A stretch of DNA of 44,987 nt, from the IMG/VR virus record IMGVR_UViG_3300049924_000088, positions 1 through 44,987 of that record. One strand, 5' to 3'. The stretch comes from a virus (lineage: Duplodnaviria > Caudoviricetes). The notes beneath the pieces were generated by a model, which searched no databases, had not been told where the DNA came from, and saw only the letters and a program-made list of their open reading frames with translations. The position numbers and the translations under genes are program-made. How positions within the stretch are numbered: position 1 is the stretch's first letter; each line of letters starts with the position of its first letter. Shown here one piece after another: positions 4,240 through 44,434 of this stretch.

Positions 4240-4524
4240 TTACGCCAATGAGTCGTAAATTTTGTGCACTTCGCGTACGAGTGCTTCGACCAAAATGTTG
4301 TCGATAAAATTGGGAATTTCAAGTGGTCGCATGTAGGTGTCATAGGCCAATCGCACACCAGCCTCAACCACAGACCACGCCGGCAGATTTTCCATAAGCA
4401 TCTGGCTTGCTCTGTCCAAGATACGCTGGAAAAAATCAGAGAATCGCTCCATCTTCCACGCACCGGCGCCGAACGCCTCAAGCTCGTGTCCACCGTCAAT
4501 CTCGATCGCAAATCCATCAGACAC
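4240..4524 (-). CDS. hypothetical protein
   Basis: GTG start with GAGGGGGTGA RBS. Confidence 0.6.
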   Translation of the reverse strand: MSDGFAIEIDGGHELEAFGAGAWKMERFSDFFQRILDRASQMLMENLPAWSVVEAGVRLAYDTYMRPLEIPNFIDNILVEALVREVHKIYDSLA

Positions 4525-9575: not shown

Positions 9576-9809
9576 TCACCGTAGTTGCTCCGTCGCATTG
9601 CAATAGCCCTCGAGCCACAATCTGGCAAGTCCATCGTTATTTTTGTATGGATTCGCTTCAGCATTGATATGTGACATAGCTGCCCGATGACCTTCTTTGC
9701 GAACTGCTTCATAATCTGCATTCTTGAGGCGCGACATGCCAATCGCGAACAACACAACTACACACAAAATTACAGTTGTCCAAAAAGCCACTTCTATTTT
9801 ATAGCTCAT
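9576..9809 (-). CDS. small membrane-anchored protein
   Basis: N-terminal TM; ANPY..W.EGY C-terminal motif. Confidence 0.6.
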   Translation of the reverse strand: MSYKIEVAFWTTVILCVVVLFAIGMSRLKNADYEAVRKEGHRAAMSHINAEANPYKNNDGLARLWLEGYCNATEQLR

Positions 9810-10157: not shown

Positions 10158-10368
10158 GTTCTTGCTCCTGTATCACTATCTCGAATCGCACCACTTCGGG
10201 AAACTTGCTTGGCTCAATTCCTACGCCGACGCCCATCAGTTCTAACATTGTGCTAGCCGAGCAATCCTCATCAATTCTTTCCTCGAATTGGCACACCTGC
10301 CGCTCGCTCATAATCGCAATGTCTTTGTGATAGCCGTCCGCGTTGAATGCCCTAATGACAACTCTCAT
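10141..10368 (-). CDS. hypothetical protein
   Basis: GGAGCAAGAACA leader, same as the leader of the next gene. Confidence 0.55.
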   Translation of the reverse strand: MRVVIRAFNADGYHKDIAIMSERQVCQFEERIDEDCSASTMLELMGVGVGIEPSKFPEVVRFEIVIQEQEHGKSS

Positions 10369-16719: not shown

Positions 16720-17068
16720 CTGAGTTACCTTCCACGAAATCGGGATGATACGGCAATAAACACGTTATCGCGCCGTCGAAAATCTCCTTGCCGTCAGCGT
16801 CTTTCGGGAAGTGATATGCACGACAAGGCCAACCGCACTCTATTCCAGTGTGACCGCCGGTACAAACTCCTTCGCCGTAGGCCAATCCCCAGCGAAATGA
16901 ACCCAGAAAGCCGCCTAATTTTGAACCACATTTTGGACAAACGCCCGGCGAGCAAAACGTAGCAAAATACGCGTCAAGTGCACTTTTTATGTCGGACCAA
17001 TCTGCACCGTCCGAATTGATTTTCAACACGTCCTCGCAACCCAGCTTCGATATATCTTTCGTTTGCAT
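16712..17068 (-). CDS. hypothetical Zn-ribbon protein
   Basis: CPKCG, F.WG..GEG.C..CGWP.R.YH. Confidence 0.6.
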   Translation of the reverse strand: MQTKDISKLGCEDVLKINSDGADWSDIKSALDAYFATFCSPGVCPKCGSKLGGFLGSFRWGLAYGEGVCTGGHTGIECGWPCRAYHFPKDADGKEIFDGAITCLLPYHPDFVEGNSDE

Positions 17069-17166
17069 CACCAAATCCTAAACAAATGTTCGCTAACCAC
17101 CGCCAACAAAATCGCCGCAATGATGGCCAACGAAAACATCATGGCCGTTGAGTTGTTCTCACTCAT
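17068..17166 (-). CDS. 32-aa membrane peptide
   Basis: Hand translation MSENNSTAMMFSLAIIAAILLAVVSEHLFRIW; TGATG coupling. Confidence 0.5.
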   Translation of the reverse strand: MSENNSTAMMFSLAIIAAILLAVVSEHLFRIW

Positions 17167-17449
17167 ATTTGCGCCGCCTCAGTCTTGGCATCTCCGCATA
17201 AAATCTTGGCTCGCGCAAACTGTCGTCGCGTTTGGCGTAGACCATGTTCCGCATAGCCTCTAGCCTTTTCGCTTTGACTATCGCAACTCGCTCCGCAATC
17301 TCTTCGGGTGTCGGCGACTCAACTTCGTCGCTGTCTAAATCTTCTCCGCGTGCTATTGCCCTGATCTGCCCAAAATCAATTTGCAGCATCCGCGCAATGT
17401 GACGCAAACCATGACCCTCATCGAGTAGTTGTTTAATTCGCTCTTTCAT
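17159..17449 (-). CDS. HTH-containing protein
   Basis: G.GLRHIARML HTH-like segment; PTPEEIAER motif. Confidence 0.55.
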   Translation of the reverse strand: MKERIKQLLDEGHGLRHIARMLQIDFGQIRAIARGEDLDSDEVESPTPEEIAERVAIVKAKRLEAMRNMVYAKRDDSLREPRFYAEMPRLRRRKYE

Positions 17450-17667
17450 TATCGTTGCCCCGGTAGTGTGATTGATTCGTGGATGCCAGTACGCTTGGCA
17501 ATCTCAATGATTTTTTCATCATCAAGTTTGCCCAGGAATTCGACTACGCGACCAACCAGCATTGGCGTTGACTTGCCATCGGCGTCCTTGATCGTTCCGC
17601 ACCGAGGGCACCACCAAACGCCAGCAATTATTGAGTGCATCGTATGATCGCAATTAGGACACGCCAT
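17449..17667 (-). CDS. Zn-ribbon protein
   Basis: CPNCDHTM..WCPRCGT; GAGGGGAG RBS. Confidence 0.6.
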   Translation of the reverse strand: MACPNCDHTMHSIIAGVWWCPRCGTIKDADGKSTPMLVGRVVEFLGKLDDEKIIEIAKRTGIHESITLPGQR

Positions 17668-17794
17668 AATTTCTCCCCTCAACTCTGAGCCGGACCAACG
17701 GGGGCTAAGCACCGTGCCTCACCCCCGGTCCGACGATCCTACTGGCATCGCTGCCATCTACCGCGTCAATGCGGCTCCTCGTCCTGTCGATCCT

Positions 17795-17911
17795 TCAATT
17801 GCACATTAAATAGATTGCCCAAATCGTCGTCGCAACTATGATTGCTCCGAGTGAAACGCCGACAAATACGCCGCCATTGCAATCGTCGTTGTCGTGCCAA
17901 TCGTAGTTCAT
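17795..17911 (-). CDS. small membrane protein
   Basis: MNYDWHD..TM helix; GGAGG RBS. Confidence 0.5.
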   Translation of the reverse strand: MNYDWHDNDDCNGGVFVGVSLGAIIVATTIWAIYLMCN

Positions 17912-17912
17912 G

Positions 17913-18146
17913 TCAATTTCCTCCGAGAATAGCACCGCAGCAGTTGCATCCATAAGCCAAGTTGTCATCCCATAGATCACGACTGCCGCAGTGTGCGCAT
18001 CTGCCGGTATGGTGACCCACTGGTTCAGTGTGCGGATTGTTTGTGCGCCGCATGTTTGCAAGCTGTTCTTGGTCTATTTCTTTCGACCTAAAAATGCACC
18101 GATTTTCGTGTAGGTCAACATAGGCTCGCTGCTCGTCGTTAGCCAT
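17913..18146 (-). CDS. Zn-ribbon protein
   Basis: CAHCGS.DLWDD..YGCNCCG. Confidence 0.55.
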   Translation of the reverse strand: MANDEQRAYVDLHENRCIFRSKEIDQEQLANMRRTNNPHTEPVGHHTGRCAHCGSRDLWDDNLAYGCNCCGAILGGN

Positions 18147-18348
18147 GTTTCGCAGTCCTCATCAATTCGCGTGCTTTTGCAACCACCCGCGCCGCATCGA
18201 GCCAACTAAAATCAAGCCGACTCGATACAGCAAATTTGCCGACCTGTTTACACAAGAGAGGAAACGTGCAGTCGGTGAAATGAAATGCGTAACAGTGATT
18301 AGATTTTGTCGCATAGCAAAATTTGTGCGTTGTGCCGATGCGGTTCAT
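18139..18348 (-). CDS. hypothetical protein
   Basis: G.FA....L.FSW.DAA motif, remembered from Planctomycetota hypotheticals. Confidence 0.55.
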   Translation of the reverse strand: MNRIGTTHKFCYATKSNHCYAFHFTDCTFPLLCKQVGKFAVSSRLDFSWLDAARVVAKARELMRTAKHG

Positions 18349-18728
18349 GCTGTGATCTCCGGATCATTGTTGCGTTGCACAAACCACCGCACTGCATCGC
18401 GAAACCAATAGAGTTGCGGATTGTAGTTCTTGCCTTGCTTGACCTTAAACGTGTTGTGGTCAAGCTTTTGCAAAAAGTAATCCGTATCATCCACCGCGCC
18501 GCGACACCACGGAAGCATGTCGTACGCTCGCGTAACGACAAACGTTGACAGGTCTCCCGTAAAAATTAGGTGGCCTGGAATTGTAGTTATTACGAAAGCA
18601 TATGTGCCGCTGTCTTGTCGACCACAAATCCAAGAGCGGTAGATGTCCTGTGCCAATACTTGGGTAATCTTGTGCTCCGCGAAACATCGGTCGCTCATTT
18701 CGCGAATACGTTGCTCCATCGCGTTCAT
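18345..18728 (-). CDS. hypothetical protein
   Basis: PGHL.FTGD motif; ATGA overlaps. Confidence 0.6.
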   Translation of the reverse strand: MNAMEQRIREMSDRCFAEHKITQVLAQDIYRSWICGRQDSGTYAFVITTIPGHLIFTGDLSTFVVTRAYDMLPWCRGAVDDTDYFLQKLDHNTFKVKQGKNYNPQLYWFRDAVRWFVQRNNDPEITA

Positions 18729-18970
18729 TTCTGCATCCTCCGAGCACGTTCAGCCATCATCGCCTCAGCAACGCCGAAAGCATGTTCGGCTATCTTGGAA
18801 TAATCCGATTGCGTTGAGCCATACGAATACCGAACAAAATCTATTGACGCCAGCGCTTGCCCAGCAAACCAATCGAGCAATGTCATGCCGGTAAATTCGT
18901 GTGCGCTACCTTGCGTTGGAAAAGCAAATCCGCCGCTAGTGTCGCTGTTGTCAGATGTTTCGTCGCTCAT
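18725..18970 (-). CDS. conserved phage protein (GG.AFP..GMTL.D.FA.QAL family)
   Basis: Motif recognition. Confidence 0.7.
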   Translation of the reverse strand: MSDETSDNSDTSGGFAFPTQGSAHEFTGMTLLDWFAGQALASIDFVRYSYGSTQSDYSKIAEHAFGVAEAMMAERARRMQK

Positions 18971-19200
18971 AATTTCAACTCCACCACAAAGCAAACATAC
19001 GATTCGTTACCCTCGCAGCTAGTCCATGCTGCTAGTTCGCTGTCCCACCGCACCGCAGCGTTACCGTGCACTTGCAAAAAATACGCCTTCTCAAATCGAT
19101 CGACAAACATGCGAGTCCGTGGCCCGCGTCGTGTGACCTTGATTCGCTCGATTCGGTCTACGCTGATGTCGCGCAGGATGTTGGTTGTTGTTGTGCTCAT
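18967..19200 (-). CDS. hypothetical protein
   Basis: GAGGACAAA RBS before MSTTTT. Confidence 0.55.
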   Translation of the reverse strand: MSTTTTNILRDISVDRIERIKVTRRGPRTRMFVDRFEKAYFLQVHGNAAVRWDSELAAWTSCEGNESYVCFVVELKL

Positions 19201-19324
19201 TTTGTCCTCGCGAAATGTTTGCCAGCGAATGGTTGCGTTGTTGTACCAGGTTTCCACGATTCACCTCAATTGTAAGAGAGCTGGCAGAGCCCCAACGGTT
19301 GCCAGCACACCGTCCCGCCAAGGA

Positions 19325-19513
19325 CTACAGCCCTGCGACTCGGTGGTACCGCTGCAGCGTTGCCGCCGACTTGCGAGCGTCGCGACCCATCCGGTCGATG
19401 CGCAGCGATTGTGCGACTTGCAGTCGATAAGACGATCCACGGACGCATTCGTCAGGTGTGCGTGCGAGTCGTAGCAGATGGACGGTAAGGATAGCTTTGG
19501 TTGTCGGTTTCAT
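19325..19513 (-). CDS. 62-aa basic hypothetical protein
   Basis: GAGGACAAATT-ATG leader; Arg/Lys-rich. Confidence 0.6.
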   Translation of the reverse strand: MKPTTKAILTVHLLRLARTPDECVRGSSYRLQVAQSLRIDRMGRDARKSAATLQRYHRVAGL

Positions 19514-19545
19514 AATTTGTCCTCATTGGCGGAAAGGTTAGTTTT

Positions 19546-19603
19546 GGCCTGCCTCATCAGTGTGCGTAGGCCGGATCGCACAGAGCCCCGTAGGGCTTTC
19601 GGC
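19546..19603 (-). ncRNA. type II hammerhead ribozyme
   Basis: GCC GAAA GCCC-UACG-GGGC UC | UGUGCG-AUCCGGCCUA-CGCACA CUGAUGA GGC AGGCC: full core, stems I-III, loop I GGCCU pairs with 3' AGGCC. Confidence 0.93.
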
Positions 19604-20064
19604 TATAGGGCACGCAGACCGGCCGCCAGCTGATCATTGCCGCATTCCTCAGCAGCATCGGCTAGCACGTCGATCGGAGTATCTGACGACATGCCCAATG
19701 CACTCGCACGCTCCAGTAGGCTATCAACACGAGCGTATAGGTTAGGTGACAACTCGCCCGTTGGCGGAACCCATGCTGATCTGCGGCCAAATCCAGTTGA
19801 GCCTTTTTTTGCGCTAGTCGTAATGATGTACGTCCACGCCACCCCATCACTGTCGCGCCACACGACAGCAGCGGTAGCGTAAGCGTCATATCCGTAGCTG
19901 TTGGGCACATGGCCTGCGTGCAAAAATACGTGCTGACCCGATAGCAATTCTTCTGCCGCTCGATTAATCTGCTCAATCGTCATAATGCGCTTGCGACGAC
20001 TACCATTAGCGCGACGTAGTAAAGTTGCGACTGATACGCGTTGTTCTGTTGTTGCTACTGTCAT
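19603..20064 (-). CDS. hypothetical early protein
   Basis: AGGA RBS; C-terminal P..VLADAAEE.G resembles a TIGR02996-like motif. Confidence 0.65.
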   Translation of the reverse strand: MTVATTEQRVSVATLLRRANGSRRKRIMTIEQINRAAEELLSGQHVFLHAGHVPNSYGYDAYATAAVVWRDSDGVAWTYIITTSAKKGSTGFGRRSAWVPPTGELSPNLYARVDSLLERASALGMSSDTPIDVLADAAEECGNDQLAAGLRAL

Positions 20065-20126
20065 AATTCTGTCCTTTGGCGGAAAGGTGTTGCGTCAACT
20101 GCGATGTGCGATTGACTACGTACATA

Positions 20127-20154
20127 AGTATTGCAGATATCGACCGCGTGTCAA
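20127..20154 (-). promoter_or_regulatory. sigma70-type early promoter
   Basis: TTGACA-16 nt-AATACT with extended -10 TG, in an AT-rich gap. Confidence 0.65.
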
Positions 20155-20209
20155 CAATAATTTACAGAATCGGGATCCGTTTTCCCGGAATTTTCAGAAA
20201 AGCCTTATT

Positions 20210-20425
20210 TTACTTGGCTTTTTTCGCAGAAGTTTTTTTGCAAATCAGCTTGATTTCGCCGCCACAAGCCTGCGCAAGACGGGTCGCAAGAGCCAGCGAC
20301 GGGTCTTTTTCGCGCTTGGCCACAGCGTAGACGGTCTGTCTGCTGCAATCGGCCTGCTCAGCGATTGCGATTGCGGTTGATTTGCCGCTGGAGATAGTGC
20401 GTGTAATTAGCTCTGGTAGTTGCAT
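20210..20425 (-). CDS. XRE (Cro/CI) helix-turn-helix regulator
   Basis: IAEQADCSRQTVYAV...KDPSLALATRLAQACG. Confidence 0.8.
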   Translation of the reverse strand: MQLPELITRTISSGKSTAIAIAEQADCSRQTVYAVAKREKDPSLALATRLAQACGGEIKLICKKTSAKKAK

Positions 20426-20432
20426 GTCATTT

Positions 20433-20461
20433 ATCGTACACACTTGACGCTACAATTACAA
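20433..20461 (-). promoter_or_regulatory. putative promoter giving a leaderless repressor mRNA
   Basis: TTGTAA-17 nt-TACGAT, then 7 nt to ATG; no RBS. Confidence 0.45.
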
Positions 20462-20465
20462 TGTG

Positions 20466-20798
20466 CTATTCGCGCGTGCTGAACTGATCGCAGCCACGGC
20501 AACAGCGAAAGTTTTCGCCAGTCAGTATCGTGCCATGGAAATCGGCAAACTCTAGTGGCTGCTTGTTGCCGCAATAGATTTGCAAGAGATTGCAGCGGTA
20601 GATTGCGCCGCATGCACACGATGCTTGGCCGAGATGCTCGCCGCGATGTTGACATATTTGAGGCGGTGGCAATGTAGGTCCGCGCCATTGCTCATATCCC
20701 TCTGGTATCTCCAATTGAGTGCCGCATGAGCAATAAAACGGTGGCCTAAGTTTCGTTGGTGGATTCAACTGCAAATGGCAATGCGTACACTCAATCAC
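20466..20798 (-). CDS. Cys-rich protein at the end of the tail module
   Basis: Many CxxC/CxC motifs. Confidence 0.6.
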   Translation of the reverse strand: MIECTHCHLQLNPPTKLRPPFYCSCGTQLEIPEGYEQWRGPTLPPPQICQHRGEHLGQASCACGAIYRCNLLQIYCGNKQPLEFADFHGTILTGENFRCCRGCDQFSTRE

Positions 20799-21565
20799 GC
20801 TAGGCTCACATCTACATCACAGAGCCACGATACCGGAGTTAGTCCGCATGGAGTGTAAGTACCTGGTATCGTTGCATCGCAGTCCACTTGGCTTACGTTT
20901 GTACCTAACAGCTTTTGGTAAAGCTGCATATCAGCACAATCAGATGGATCAGTTACCGTGTAGCTGATTCCCAAAATAGCGTAGACATTTGCGAGGTTCA
21001 TACCAGCACAATCACCTTGTTGCACCTTCAAATAAATACGCCATGGTCTACGCACGTATTGATGGGGAAACGTACCGCAGATAAGTTGTCCTCCGAACGG
21101 CCCGCCAGTCCATTCGCAACCACTGCCCGTCACAGTGAACGAACCATCGAACTCCGCACATCGGCCAACTACGTCATCATGATCGCAATCACACTCATCA
21201 TGCAATGCTTGGTTGGCAAACGTCACTGTGTAGCTAGTGCTGTTTGTGCCCGATTGACACTTCGAGCAATTACCGCCTGTGCAACTATCGGCAACCAGAC
21301 ATTGAGTAGTACCACACGCATTAGTTGCATACAGCACGTAGTTCCGACATGCACCGCCGACGATGTAGAAGTTTGTGTAGTTCAGTGCAGTGGAAATCAT
21401 GTTGCCGAGGTTGTCATAGATCGCTACTGAATTGGCGCCTGTCGTTGTCCAAGTAAGTGTAATGTCTGACCCTGGTGTGCCACCGCTTGCAACGATAGTC
21501 AGTGTGCACGTAGGAGGATCAGTACAACAGCAACCGCAATTCCCGCTCGGTCCAAACCAGCCCAT
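20795..21565 (-). CDS. Cys-rich putative tail tip protein
   Basis: CGCCC N-terminus, TLTWTT..A..V.I Ig-like segment. Confidence 0.6.
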   Translation of the reverse strand: MGWFGPSGNCGCCCTDPPTCTLTIVASGGTPGSDITLTWTTTGANSVAIYDNLGNMISTALNYTNFYIVGGACRNYVLYATNACGTTQCLVADSCTGGNCSKCQSGTNSTSYTVTFANQALHDECDCDHDDVVGRCAEFDGSFTVTGSGCEWTGGPFGGQLICGTFPHQYVRRPWRIYLKVQQGDCAGMNLANVYAILGISYTVTDPSDCADMQLYQKLLGTNVSQVDCDATIPGTYTPCGLTPVSWLCDVDVSLA

Positions 21566-43730: not shown

Positions 43731-43991
43731 TTACCTCAATTTGGCTTCGTTGACCGTCTGCTGAATCTCATTGATTGTACTACTCAATTGCGATACCGTT
43801 GACCACAACATAACCGCGTAAATCGTCGCTACCGCTGCCCAGATTGCGAGGGCTGCAATACCGTATCGACTGAGTTTTTGGCCTGCTGTGCCTCCCTCAA
43901 TGCGCTCAGCAATCTCTCTGATCCGCCGAACATCAAGGTACTCAATATTGCGGCTACTGTGATCAGAGTCTTCCAGTTGTCCCGAGTCCAC
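43731..43991 (-). CDS. single-TM coiled-coil protein overlapping the PAS gene
   Basis: AGGTGA RBS + GTG; TM YGIAALAIWAAVATIYAVMLW followed by a coiled coil. Confidence 0.5.
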   Translation of the reverse strand: MDSGQLEDSDHSSRNIEYLDVRRIREIAERIEGGTAGQKLSRYGIAALAIWAAVATIYAVMLWSTVSQLSSTINEIQQTVNEAKLR

Positions 43992-44434
43992 GTGATCACC
44001 TTTCGCCAATCGACCGCCATTACTTGCGACGTTGCCGTTAGCTTGTCCTGGTACGGCCGAAACTGAACTCTGTACCCCAAGAATTCTTTGGTCGTCAAAT
44101 CCCATTTGCCCGCAACAGAGAGCATTCCCCATACTATCCTCGGATTTTGCGGAGTCGATCCGCGCTGTATGTATCGCTTCGCCAACGTGTAGCTTGGCAC
44201 CTCGCCATTGGCTACTTGCTCAGCCAACTTCTCGTCTATCTTAACATCTTCCGGATGCGTCCACTCTGCAAATTTGGTCCCGATAATCAGGTCAGCCGGA
44301 GCGTTGAGTATCGCACAGTAGGCCGGATTGACCCAGCAAAAGTTGCCGTGTGGGTCAACCTCCGCAAAGCCCCACGCCGCATCGCAAACGAACGCTATGG
44401 CATCCTCGCAACTGATTGTAGCAACTCGAGACAT
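43829..44434 (-). CDS. PAS (S-box) domain protein with C-terminal TM helix
   Basis: VD..G.F..VNPAYC.IL, THPED, Y...KRY, VW..LSV; TM WKTLITVAAILSTLMFG. Confidence 0.85.
   Translation of the reverse strand: MSRVATISCEDAIAFVCDAAWGFAEVDPHGNFCWVNPAYCAILNAPADLIIGTKFAEWTHPEDVKIDEKLAEQVANGEVPSYTLAKRYIQRGSTPQNPRIVWGMLSVAGKWDLTTKEFLGYRVQFRPYQDKLTATSQVMAVDWRKVITWTRDNWKTLITVAAILSTLMFGGSERLLSALREAQQAKNSVDTVLQPSQSGQR

Follow-up and report, generated by a model that had tools for sequence, protein, structure and literature searches.

The window, that is, the whole stretch of DNA analysed here, is an entire virus record of 44,987 bases that is rated 100% complete and carries genes for a terminase, a lambda-type portal, a capsid-protease, tail proteins, an exonuclease VIII-like protein and a helicase on its minus strand. 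The capsid matches of this phage lie below 35% identity. The sole sequencing run found to contain the window DNA is a freshwater sediment metagenome, which may be its source, and no RNA runs containing this DNA are listed. At 43829-44434 on the minus strand, an ORF encodes a PAS-fold domain (PF08448, E 4.8e-06), which is unusual in a phage. The locus of interest forms the start of a run of small genes that reaches the recombination and replication genes, and it is preceded by an HTH gene and a promoter-like site. Its features are as follows:

20443-20210, minus strand: HTH gene, upstream of the locus and on the same strand as ORF1 and ORF2
20127..20154, minus strand: sigma-70-type promoter-like site (TTGACA, 16 nt, AATACT, with a TG extension), 10/12 consensus matches
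20071..20090, minus strand: leader 1, the anti-leader's strongest target; its Shine-Dalgarno-like (SD) AAAGGA stands 6 nt before the ORF1 ATG
19603..20064, minus strand: ORF1, 153 aa, a soluble alpha/beta protein of an unnamed family with 49 homologues
19756..19779, minus strand: third copy of the 9-mer TTCCGCCAA, inside ORF1; pairs with the anti-leader as strongly as leader 1 does
19543..19604, minus strand: type II hammerhead, with stem II opening in the ORF1 stop codon, stem III with a UACG loop, and stem I
19519..19539, minus strand: leader 2, with a Shine-Dalgarno-like GAGGA; 12 identical bases plus GGAC in common with leader 1
19325..19513, minus strand: ORF2, 62 aa, basic (pI 11.4), without a hydrophobic helix; no homologue found
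19307..19325, minus strand: anti-leader, 19 bases, whose first base is the last base of the ORF2 stop codon
19280..19306, minus strand: hairpin with a 7-bp stem, directly 3' of the anti-leader, with which its loop can pair as an alternative
19271..19281, minus strand: weak boxA-like string, 9/11 matches to GYTCTTTAANA
19204..19220, minus strand: weak third leader, in front of the ATG at 19200; forms ~12 bp together with the anti-leader (-20.5 kcal/mol), unpopulated in folds

Both leaders, the anti-leader and the hammerhead had been recognized in an earlier note on this DNA, and its three strings are found on the minus strand at these positions; the copy inside ORF1 and the weak third leader are added here. 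ORF1 and ORF2, described there as the first two early genes, are indeed the first two after the promoter-like site at 20154, but the HTH gene lies upstream of them on the same strand, and gene position is what suggests their early status. The promoter-like site (20154-20127) is the best of 3 sites in 17000-21000, where shuffles give 3.6 sites of any strength, and transcription presumably starts near 20120. A consensus scan of the plus strand detected no promoter-like site closer than 1.4 kb to the element.

The ORF1 protein is modelled as a confident alpha/beta fold (pLDDT 86.7). Most of its 49 homologue alignments begin at residues 1-17, so that a start behind leader 1 is likely; the database call of the protein begins at residue 28. 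It has no Pfam, PHROG or NCBIfam match, its best sequence match among solved structures has an E value of 0.31, and its Atlas structure matches remain below TM 0.5 by query. The family comprises about 50 clusters with the conserved motifs NGRRRxR, HGGHVANxY and KGSTGFG, and its matches include long proteins in which the central motif forms 3-7 repeats. Some members possess a C-terminal helical tail with a weak TIGR02996 match (1/31 homologues, E 0.0015), and this genome contains no TIGR02996 match. ORF2 is a putative gene, its leader being the evidence for coding. The best 19-residue hydropathy is 0.61 for ORF1 and 0.43 for ORF2, and neither product resembles a Hok-type membrane toxin; the toxins of hok/aapA-type type I toxin-antitoxin systems are small hydrophobic membrane proteins.

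The hammerhead has a canonical core (CUGAUGA and GAAA) and a GGCCU:AGGCC pseudoknot between loop I and the 3' tail, and is predicted to be cut between 19583 and 19582. The characteristic features of type II members are all found, namely the CUGANGA, GAAA and NUH core elements, the A15.1-U16.1 and G10.1-C11.1 pairs, closed stems I and III, an open stem II and the loop I pseudoknot. The match to Rfam RF02276 is full-length, with 30 bits (E 0.0017 / 8.1e-6), which is below the gathering score of 37 bits, and the element is therefore classed by its anatomy. A hammerhead pattern scan returned 41 loci, 25 of which were kept and 16 dropped as duplicates or as lacking stems. In an alignment of 16 of the 25 loci with the window copy (n=17; stem III fixed by the search pattern), 97.6% of cells are paired, and double-sided changes occur in 5/5 stem I, 4/4 pseudoknot and 2/3 stem II pairs, none of them fixed by the pattern. 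A stop-like triplet in any frame lies at most 7 bases before the core in 24/26 hammerhead copies, which suggests that the stop-ribozyme-leader arrangement is ordinary for this class. The ribozyme does lie between the two leaders, as had been reported, but not midway, the cut site being 488 nt after leader 1 and 43 nt before leader 2.

Several other hammerhead-like sequences were encountered. The source run contains, on a 151-base contig, a near-identical copy (5 differences in 61) with other flanks and no continuation into leader 2. At L007:1-3051 and L084:1-2143, single small genes are flanked by tandem hammerhead-plus-leader modules, as described for prophages. A look-alike of the enzyme half (U for C3, one-pair stem II) is located at 18165-18147 on the minus strand, where it overlaps the leader of the gene that starts at 18146; the genome offers no substrate half to match it, and the look-alike is probably an SD coincidence.

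ORF2 spans 19513-19325, and the last base of its stop codon is the first of the anti-leader, whose pairing with the two leaders has the order of strength described previously. With leader 1 it forms 18 bp (one G.U, one U/C mismatch, a 1-nt bulge) plus 2 flanking pairs, at -33.5 kcal/mol; with leader 2 it forms ~16 bp with a 3-nt bulge, at -24.5 to -25.8 kcal/mol by the window used. Within a non-coding spacer of 67 nt, the leader 1 helix covers the SD, and it closes near where the 5' end is predicted. Of the two positions in it that are not Watson-Crick pairs, one is a G.U on the transcribed strand, a single wobble and hence a weak indication. The ORF1-internal copy pairs with the anti-leader at -33.8 kcal/mol, with the bulge placed as in the leader 1 duplex, and its strand-wide best partner is likewise the anti-leader. 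Given the residues, this copy has a chance of 0.034 from codon usage alone; it is also predicted to be locally sequestered and is never populated in folds, and on both grounds its role as an anti-leader target is suggestive only. The 9-mer TTCCGCCAA has 3 copies on the minus strand, all in this locus, compared with 0.12 expected. The two leaders, the anti-leader and the hammerhead are confirmed as a real feature, in one genome. In the preferred reading, the anti-leader would be an antisense mask with ORF1 as its main target, and four other explanations have to be weighed against it.

The first, an unlikely one, holds that the four copies represent a DNA-level or protein-binding motif (for example, sites of the HTH protein), or relics of leader duplication and small inversion, in which case RNA pairing would be incidental. 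Such an origin would fit the clustering of three same-strand 9-mer copies and one inverted near-copy within 800 bp, the location of one copy within coding sequence, where no start codon follows it, and the adjacent HTH gene. It would also fit the fact that duplicated leaders are common at other hammerheads, where 4/15 other leader pairs score at least 15 compared with 18 here, and that leaders are repeated in L101, the one viral locus with an ORF1 homologue. However, the match of the inverted copy runs past the 9-mer and takes in the SD as well as 5 bases upstream, no copy overlaps the promoter-like site, and the low codon-usage chance of the internal copy also argues against this origin. Elsewhere in the genome, near-identical upstream sequences precede small genes at 10368 and 10157, and at 9809 and 9482, on the minus strand, which indicates that short duplications are common here.

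It is improbable that the locus is an ordinary phage hammerhead with a duplicated leader, in which a G-rich spacer happens to match a C-rich leader and so yields the complement. When 73 leaders hand-picked from the ORF list are ranked by their strongest partner in the downstream 1 kb, leader 1 ranks 1/73 (median -19.6, next -30.8 kcal/mol), and among dinucleotide shuffles of that 1 kb 0/150 reach the value of leader 1 and 2/150 that of leader 2. Across the entire minus strand, leader 1 has its best partner in the anti-leader (-33.7, next -26.4), a gap of 7 kcal/mol on a 45-kb strand; for leader 2 it is also the anti-leader, though narrowly (-24.5, next -24.1). The position of the anti-leader, at a stop codon and in the spacer after both genes, likewise speaks against coincidence. 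On the other side, the pair was chosen post hoc among many leaders, the runner-up leader reaches -30.8 kcal/mol, and in the reverse control the G-rich anti-leader has three equally strong unrelated minus-strand partners (-33.9, -33.5 and -33.2). A pattern built from the leader and anti-leader strings has 3 matches in the window and 0 in 100 shuffles, which is a circular test.

Coincidence would also be consistent with the scans, in which no conservation was found. No relative carrying the anti-leader appeared in any scan of viral contigs, metagenomes or annotated phages. ORF1 had one weak C-terminal match in viral contigs, a word search with it returned the window's own protein only, an exonuclease-based search yielded no relatives, and annotated phages gave no match to ORF1 or to the 1-kb DNA. 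The leader-2 pattern occurred at 3 loci, one of them coding sequence; the hammerhead-tail plus leader pattern occurred at 55 loci, none of which is a hammerhead on inspection; and the hairpin pattern had 0 occurrences in metagenomes and 13 in viral contigs, all unrelated. The leader/anti-leader pattern, in a scan that covered 61/64 parts, matched 119 loci once each, 79 of them distinct; a second core is present in 4, a start codon follows in 18, a loose hammerhead-like string occurs in 1, and the layout in 0. L101 has neither a hammerhead nor a leader:anti-leader helix. It carries a local hairpin directly upstream of the leader of the ORF1 homologue (L101:2889-2976), and its repeated leaders precede neighbouring small genes.

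The 25 other hammerhead loci contain no clear counterpart of the anti-leader. Among their leaders, 3/35 tests reach z <= -3 compared with -6.5 here (12 shuffles each), and another scoring, which took 146 leaders from 26 loci, places leader 1 first (z 4.5), with 5/138 non-window leaders above z 3 and one above 4, the latter being a point for coincidence. These tests indicate that the anti-leader layout is not a general feature of these ribozymes. Two look-alikes were set aside, one in L083, where the partner lies in coding sequence and was judged to be at chance level, and one in L077 (L077:83-66 with L077:735-715), judged to be near it. In L077, 12 bases of the post-ribozyme leader, outside the SD, are exactly complementary to a hairpin in a spacer further downstream, just before a promoter-like site.

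The stretch behind the anti-leader has a partial match in the source run, where a different 151-base contig, of depth 4, has 31/32 hairpin bases (19306-19275) in common with the window, continues into a boxA-like string and a different leader, and ends just short of the anti-leader. The sharing of the hairpin with this low-depth contig hints that it is a reusable intergenic module. Compared with shuffles, the hairpin has a z of -1.65, which is not significant (alternative fold, z -0.95), and the terminator scan did not call it; it is possibly a weak terminator or a 3' protecting stem.

The same neighbourhood bears on another explanation, as improbable as coincidence, in which the long-range helix is an RNase III leader-trailer processing stem that would, together with the hammerhead, trim the transcript into gene-sized pieces. 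RNase III processing stems are long, regular helices of about two turns; here the 18-20 bp helix does bracket both genes, but it is broken by a mismatch and a bulge. In rRNA transcripts, leader-trailer helices with boxB/boxA are RNase III substrates, as described in the accessible part of PMC10250234, and they resemble the present locus in that complementary flanks bracket a transcript block and a hairpin is followed by a boxA-like string. Unlike in those transcripts, the helix here is shorter and interrupted, and it takes in the SD, which a pure processing stem would not need. The boxA-like string, moreover, is imperfect, with 2 mismatches in 11 relative to the consensus GYTCTTTAANA given in the accessible part of PMC5725501, and is situated downstream of the trailer; at 2 mismatches, no other boxA-like string was found, and so none upstream of the leader strand.

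The least probable of the four explanations is the one originally put forward, that self-cleavage shifts silencing from ORF1 to ORF2, a swap of the silenced gene. It was examined with equilibrium folding models, which exclude pseudoknots and ribosomes. In uncut RNA ending at 19300, 19270, 19200 or 19050, the anti-leader pairs with leader 1 at 0.92-0.94, and in the isolated 3' cleavage product it pairs with leader 2 at 0.41-0.83; folding supports these two parts of the claim. Leader 2 would moreover be the only cis partner if cleavage preceded synthesis of the anti-leader, 236 nt later, and a type II hammerhead with a pseudoknot has been measured at above 1.2 per min (accessible part of PMC3088659), a comparable time scale. 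Cleavage as the cause of the swap, however, is not supported by two-strand folding, which keeps the cut products joined through leader 1 with a binding energy of -16.9 to -18.6 kcal/mol (anti-leader with leader 1 at 0.92-0.94 and with leader 2 at 0.0, for three 3' ends); an energy-only version agrees. The 3' product also prefers leader 1 in trans, binding a fresh 90-base leader 1 at -13.6 to -15.3 kcal/mol while leader 2 stays at 0.0. From these folds, cleavage is not predicted to release leader 1.

Partner choice also flips without cleavage. When ORF2 and the downstream genes of the uncut RNA are held unpaired to mimic translation and ORF1 is left free, the anti-leader pairs with leader 2 at 0.62-0.81 for 4/5 3' ends, which suggests that translation influences the choice as much as cleavage does. 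Both helices vanish when unconstrained RNA is extended to 18960, but are retained if the coding regions are held unpaired. A swap requires both a cut before the anti-leader is synthesized and a free leader 1 that is kinetically out of reach; the models do not support it as the default behaviour, and it is judged very unlikely.

The antisense mask is the reading that these results favour, and it is advanced tentatively, at somewhat less than an even chance. The leaders, their complement and the ribozyme anatomy are read from the sequence, while helix strengths and partner preference are computed. According to this reading, the anti-leader would bind leader 1 first, in the uncut transcript, so that ORF1 would be translated during the seconds before the anti-leader is made and masked thereafter. 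The hammerhead cut would leave leader 1 still bound, and the 3' fragment with its 5'-OH end, containing ORF2 and the anti-leader, would accumulate and capture leader 1 of new transcripts, giving ORF1 a burst-then-off expression profile. Leader 2 may serve as a weaker self-hold for the anti-leader, and ribosomes terminating on the ORF2 stop codon could peel the helix apart over its first half, so that release would be coupled to ORF2 translation. Terminating ribosomes could modulate both the anti-leader and stem II, since these begin in the stop codons of ORF2 and ORF1, respectively. The mask is supported by the rank of leader 1 and its shuffles, the strand-wide best partner, the 9-mer count, the helix over the SD in a non-coding spacer, the continued binding of the cut products, capture in trans and the covariation of the hammerhead. 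Counted against it are its occurrence in a single genome, the missing helix in L101, the other flanks of the near-identical hammerhead in the source run, the results for the 25 other hammerhead loci, the unrelated strong partners and the loss of the helix in longer unconstrained RNA.

An extended form of the mask, itself rather unlikely, is an all-RNA timer, in which the released fragment would be both the ORF2 mRNA and a multi-target antisense RNA that silences ORF1 in trans and itself in cis. Ribosomes would then act as gates, those at the ORF1 stop codon on the ribozyme and those at the ORF2 stop codon on the anti-leader. The roles of bacterial self-cleaving ribozymes are called largely elusive in the accessible part of PMC6765202, and such a timer, if true, would provide a concrete regulatory job for a natural hammerhead of a bacterial virus, with promoter, two leaders, ribozyme and mask all within one 850-base unit. 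If only chance or a duplication relic is involved, the locus is one more ordinary phage hammerhead.

Judged from its features, the ribozyme belongs to a known class, and the antisense addition is a predicted and apparently unusual one. Type II hammerheads (RF02276) are located between small genes of phages and prophages and have been proposed to cut long transcripts into gene-length RNAs, as far as the accessible part of Perreault et al. 2011 (PMC3088659) describes. The present element resembles them in its canonical core, in having stem II open and both other stems closed, in the pseudoknot that loop I forms with the 3' tail, and in its location between short phage genes. It differs in having a downstream complement to leaders on both sides of the ribozyme, of which that part of PMC3088659 makes no mention. 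A literature search for a hammerhead with a downstream anti-leader found nothing relevant within its scope, which excluded most subscription journals.

The assertion that no described system has such a layout was nevertheless overstated, as both the P4 CI RNA (PMC4825925) and the SD masking of hok and aapA (PMC6733600) are comparable in the accessible parts of these papers. CI is an antisense RNA that arises by processing and has two targets, seqA and seqC, within the transcript it comes from (PMC4825925, accessible part). As there, one antisense element at the present locus would be released from an early transcript by processing and has two complementary sites in that transcript. CI, in contrast, lies between its targets and causes premature termination according to that part of the source, whereas here both strong targets lie upstream, the element would stay on an ORF-bearing fragment, and the cutter would be a ribozyme. 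The c4 RNA of P1/P7 is grouped with P4 CI as an antisense immunity RNA. Rfam gives no match to a catalogued RNA family up to E 10 in 19150-19560.

The hok and aapA toxin mRNAs mask the SD by long-distance 5'-3' pairing (accessible part of PMC6733600), and the comparison with hok fold-back drawn earlier holds insofar as a long-distance helix, with a far-downstream anti-SD over the SD, is predicted here as well. It fails in that no Hok-type membrane toxin is encoded; in addition, the helix encloses two genes and a ribozyme. No sign of activation by 3' trimming was seen, and the consensus scan gave no nearby plus-strand promoter-like site from which a cis-encoded antitoxin RNA might start. Taken together, the anti-leader would work like the P4 CI RNA and the hok/aapA fold-back while belonging, on this comparison, to neither.

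Four further candidates were rejected: a hairpin ribozyme, as inspection against the consensus revealed A-GUC at the start of the anti-leader but neither an AGAA partner loop nor a loop B; a split hammerhead with the helix as a stem, no core lying beside the helix; a bulge-helix-bulge element, the inspected bulges being on the wrong side by the usual criteria and the promoter of bacterial type; and a plus-strand gene with the inverted copy as its leader, no start codon following it. A separate pairing of similar kind was observed at the gene picked at 4517, whose leader (4547-4523, minus strand) forms ~14 contiguous bp with ~3840-3820, 700 nt downstream, and at -30.8 kcal/mol is the second of the 73 leaders.
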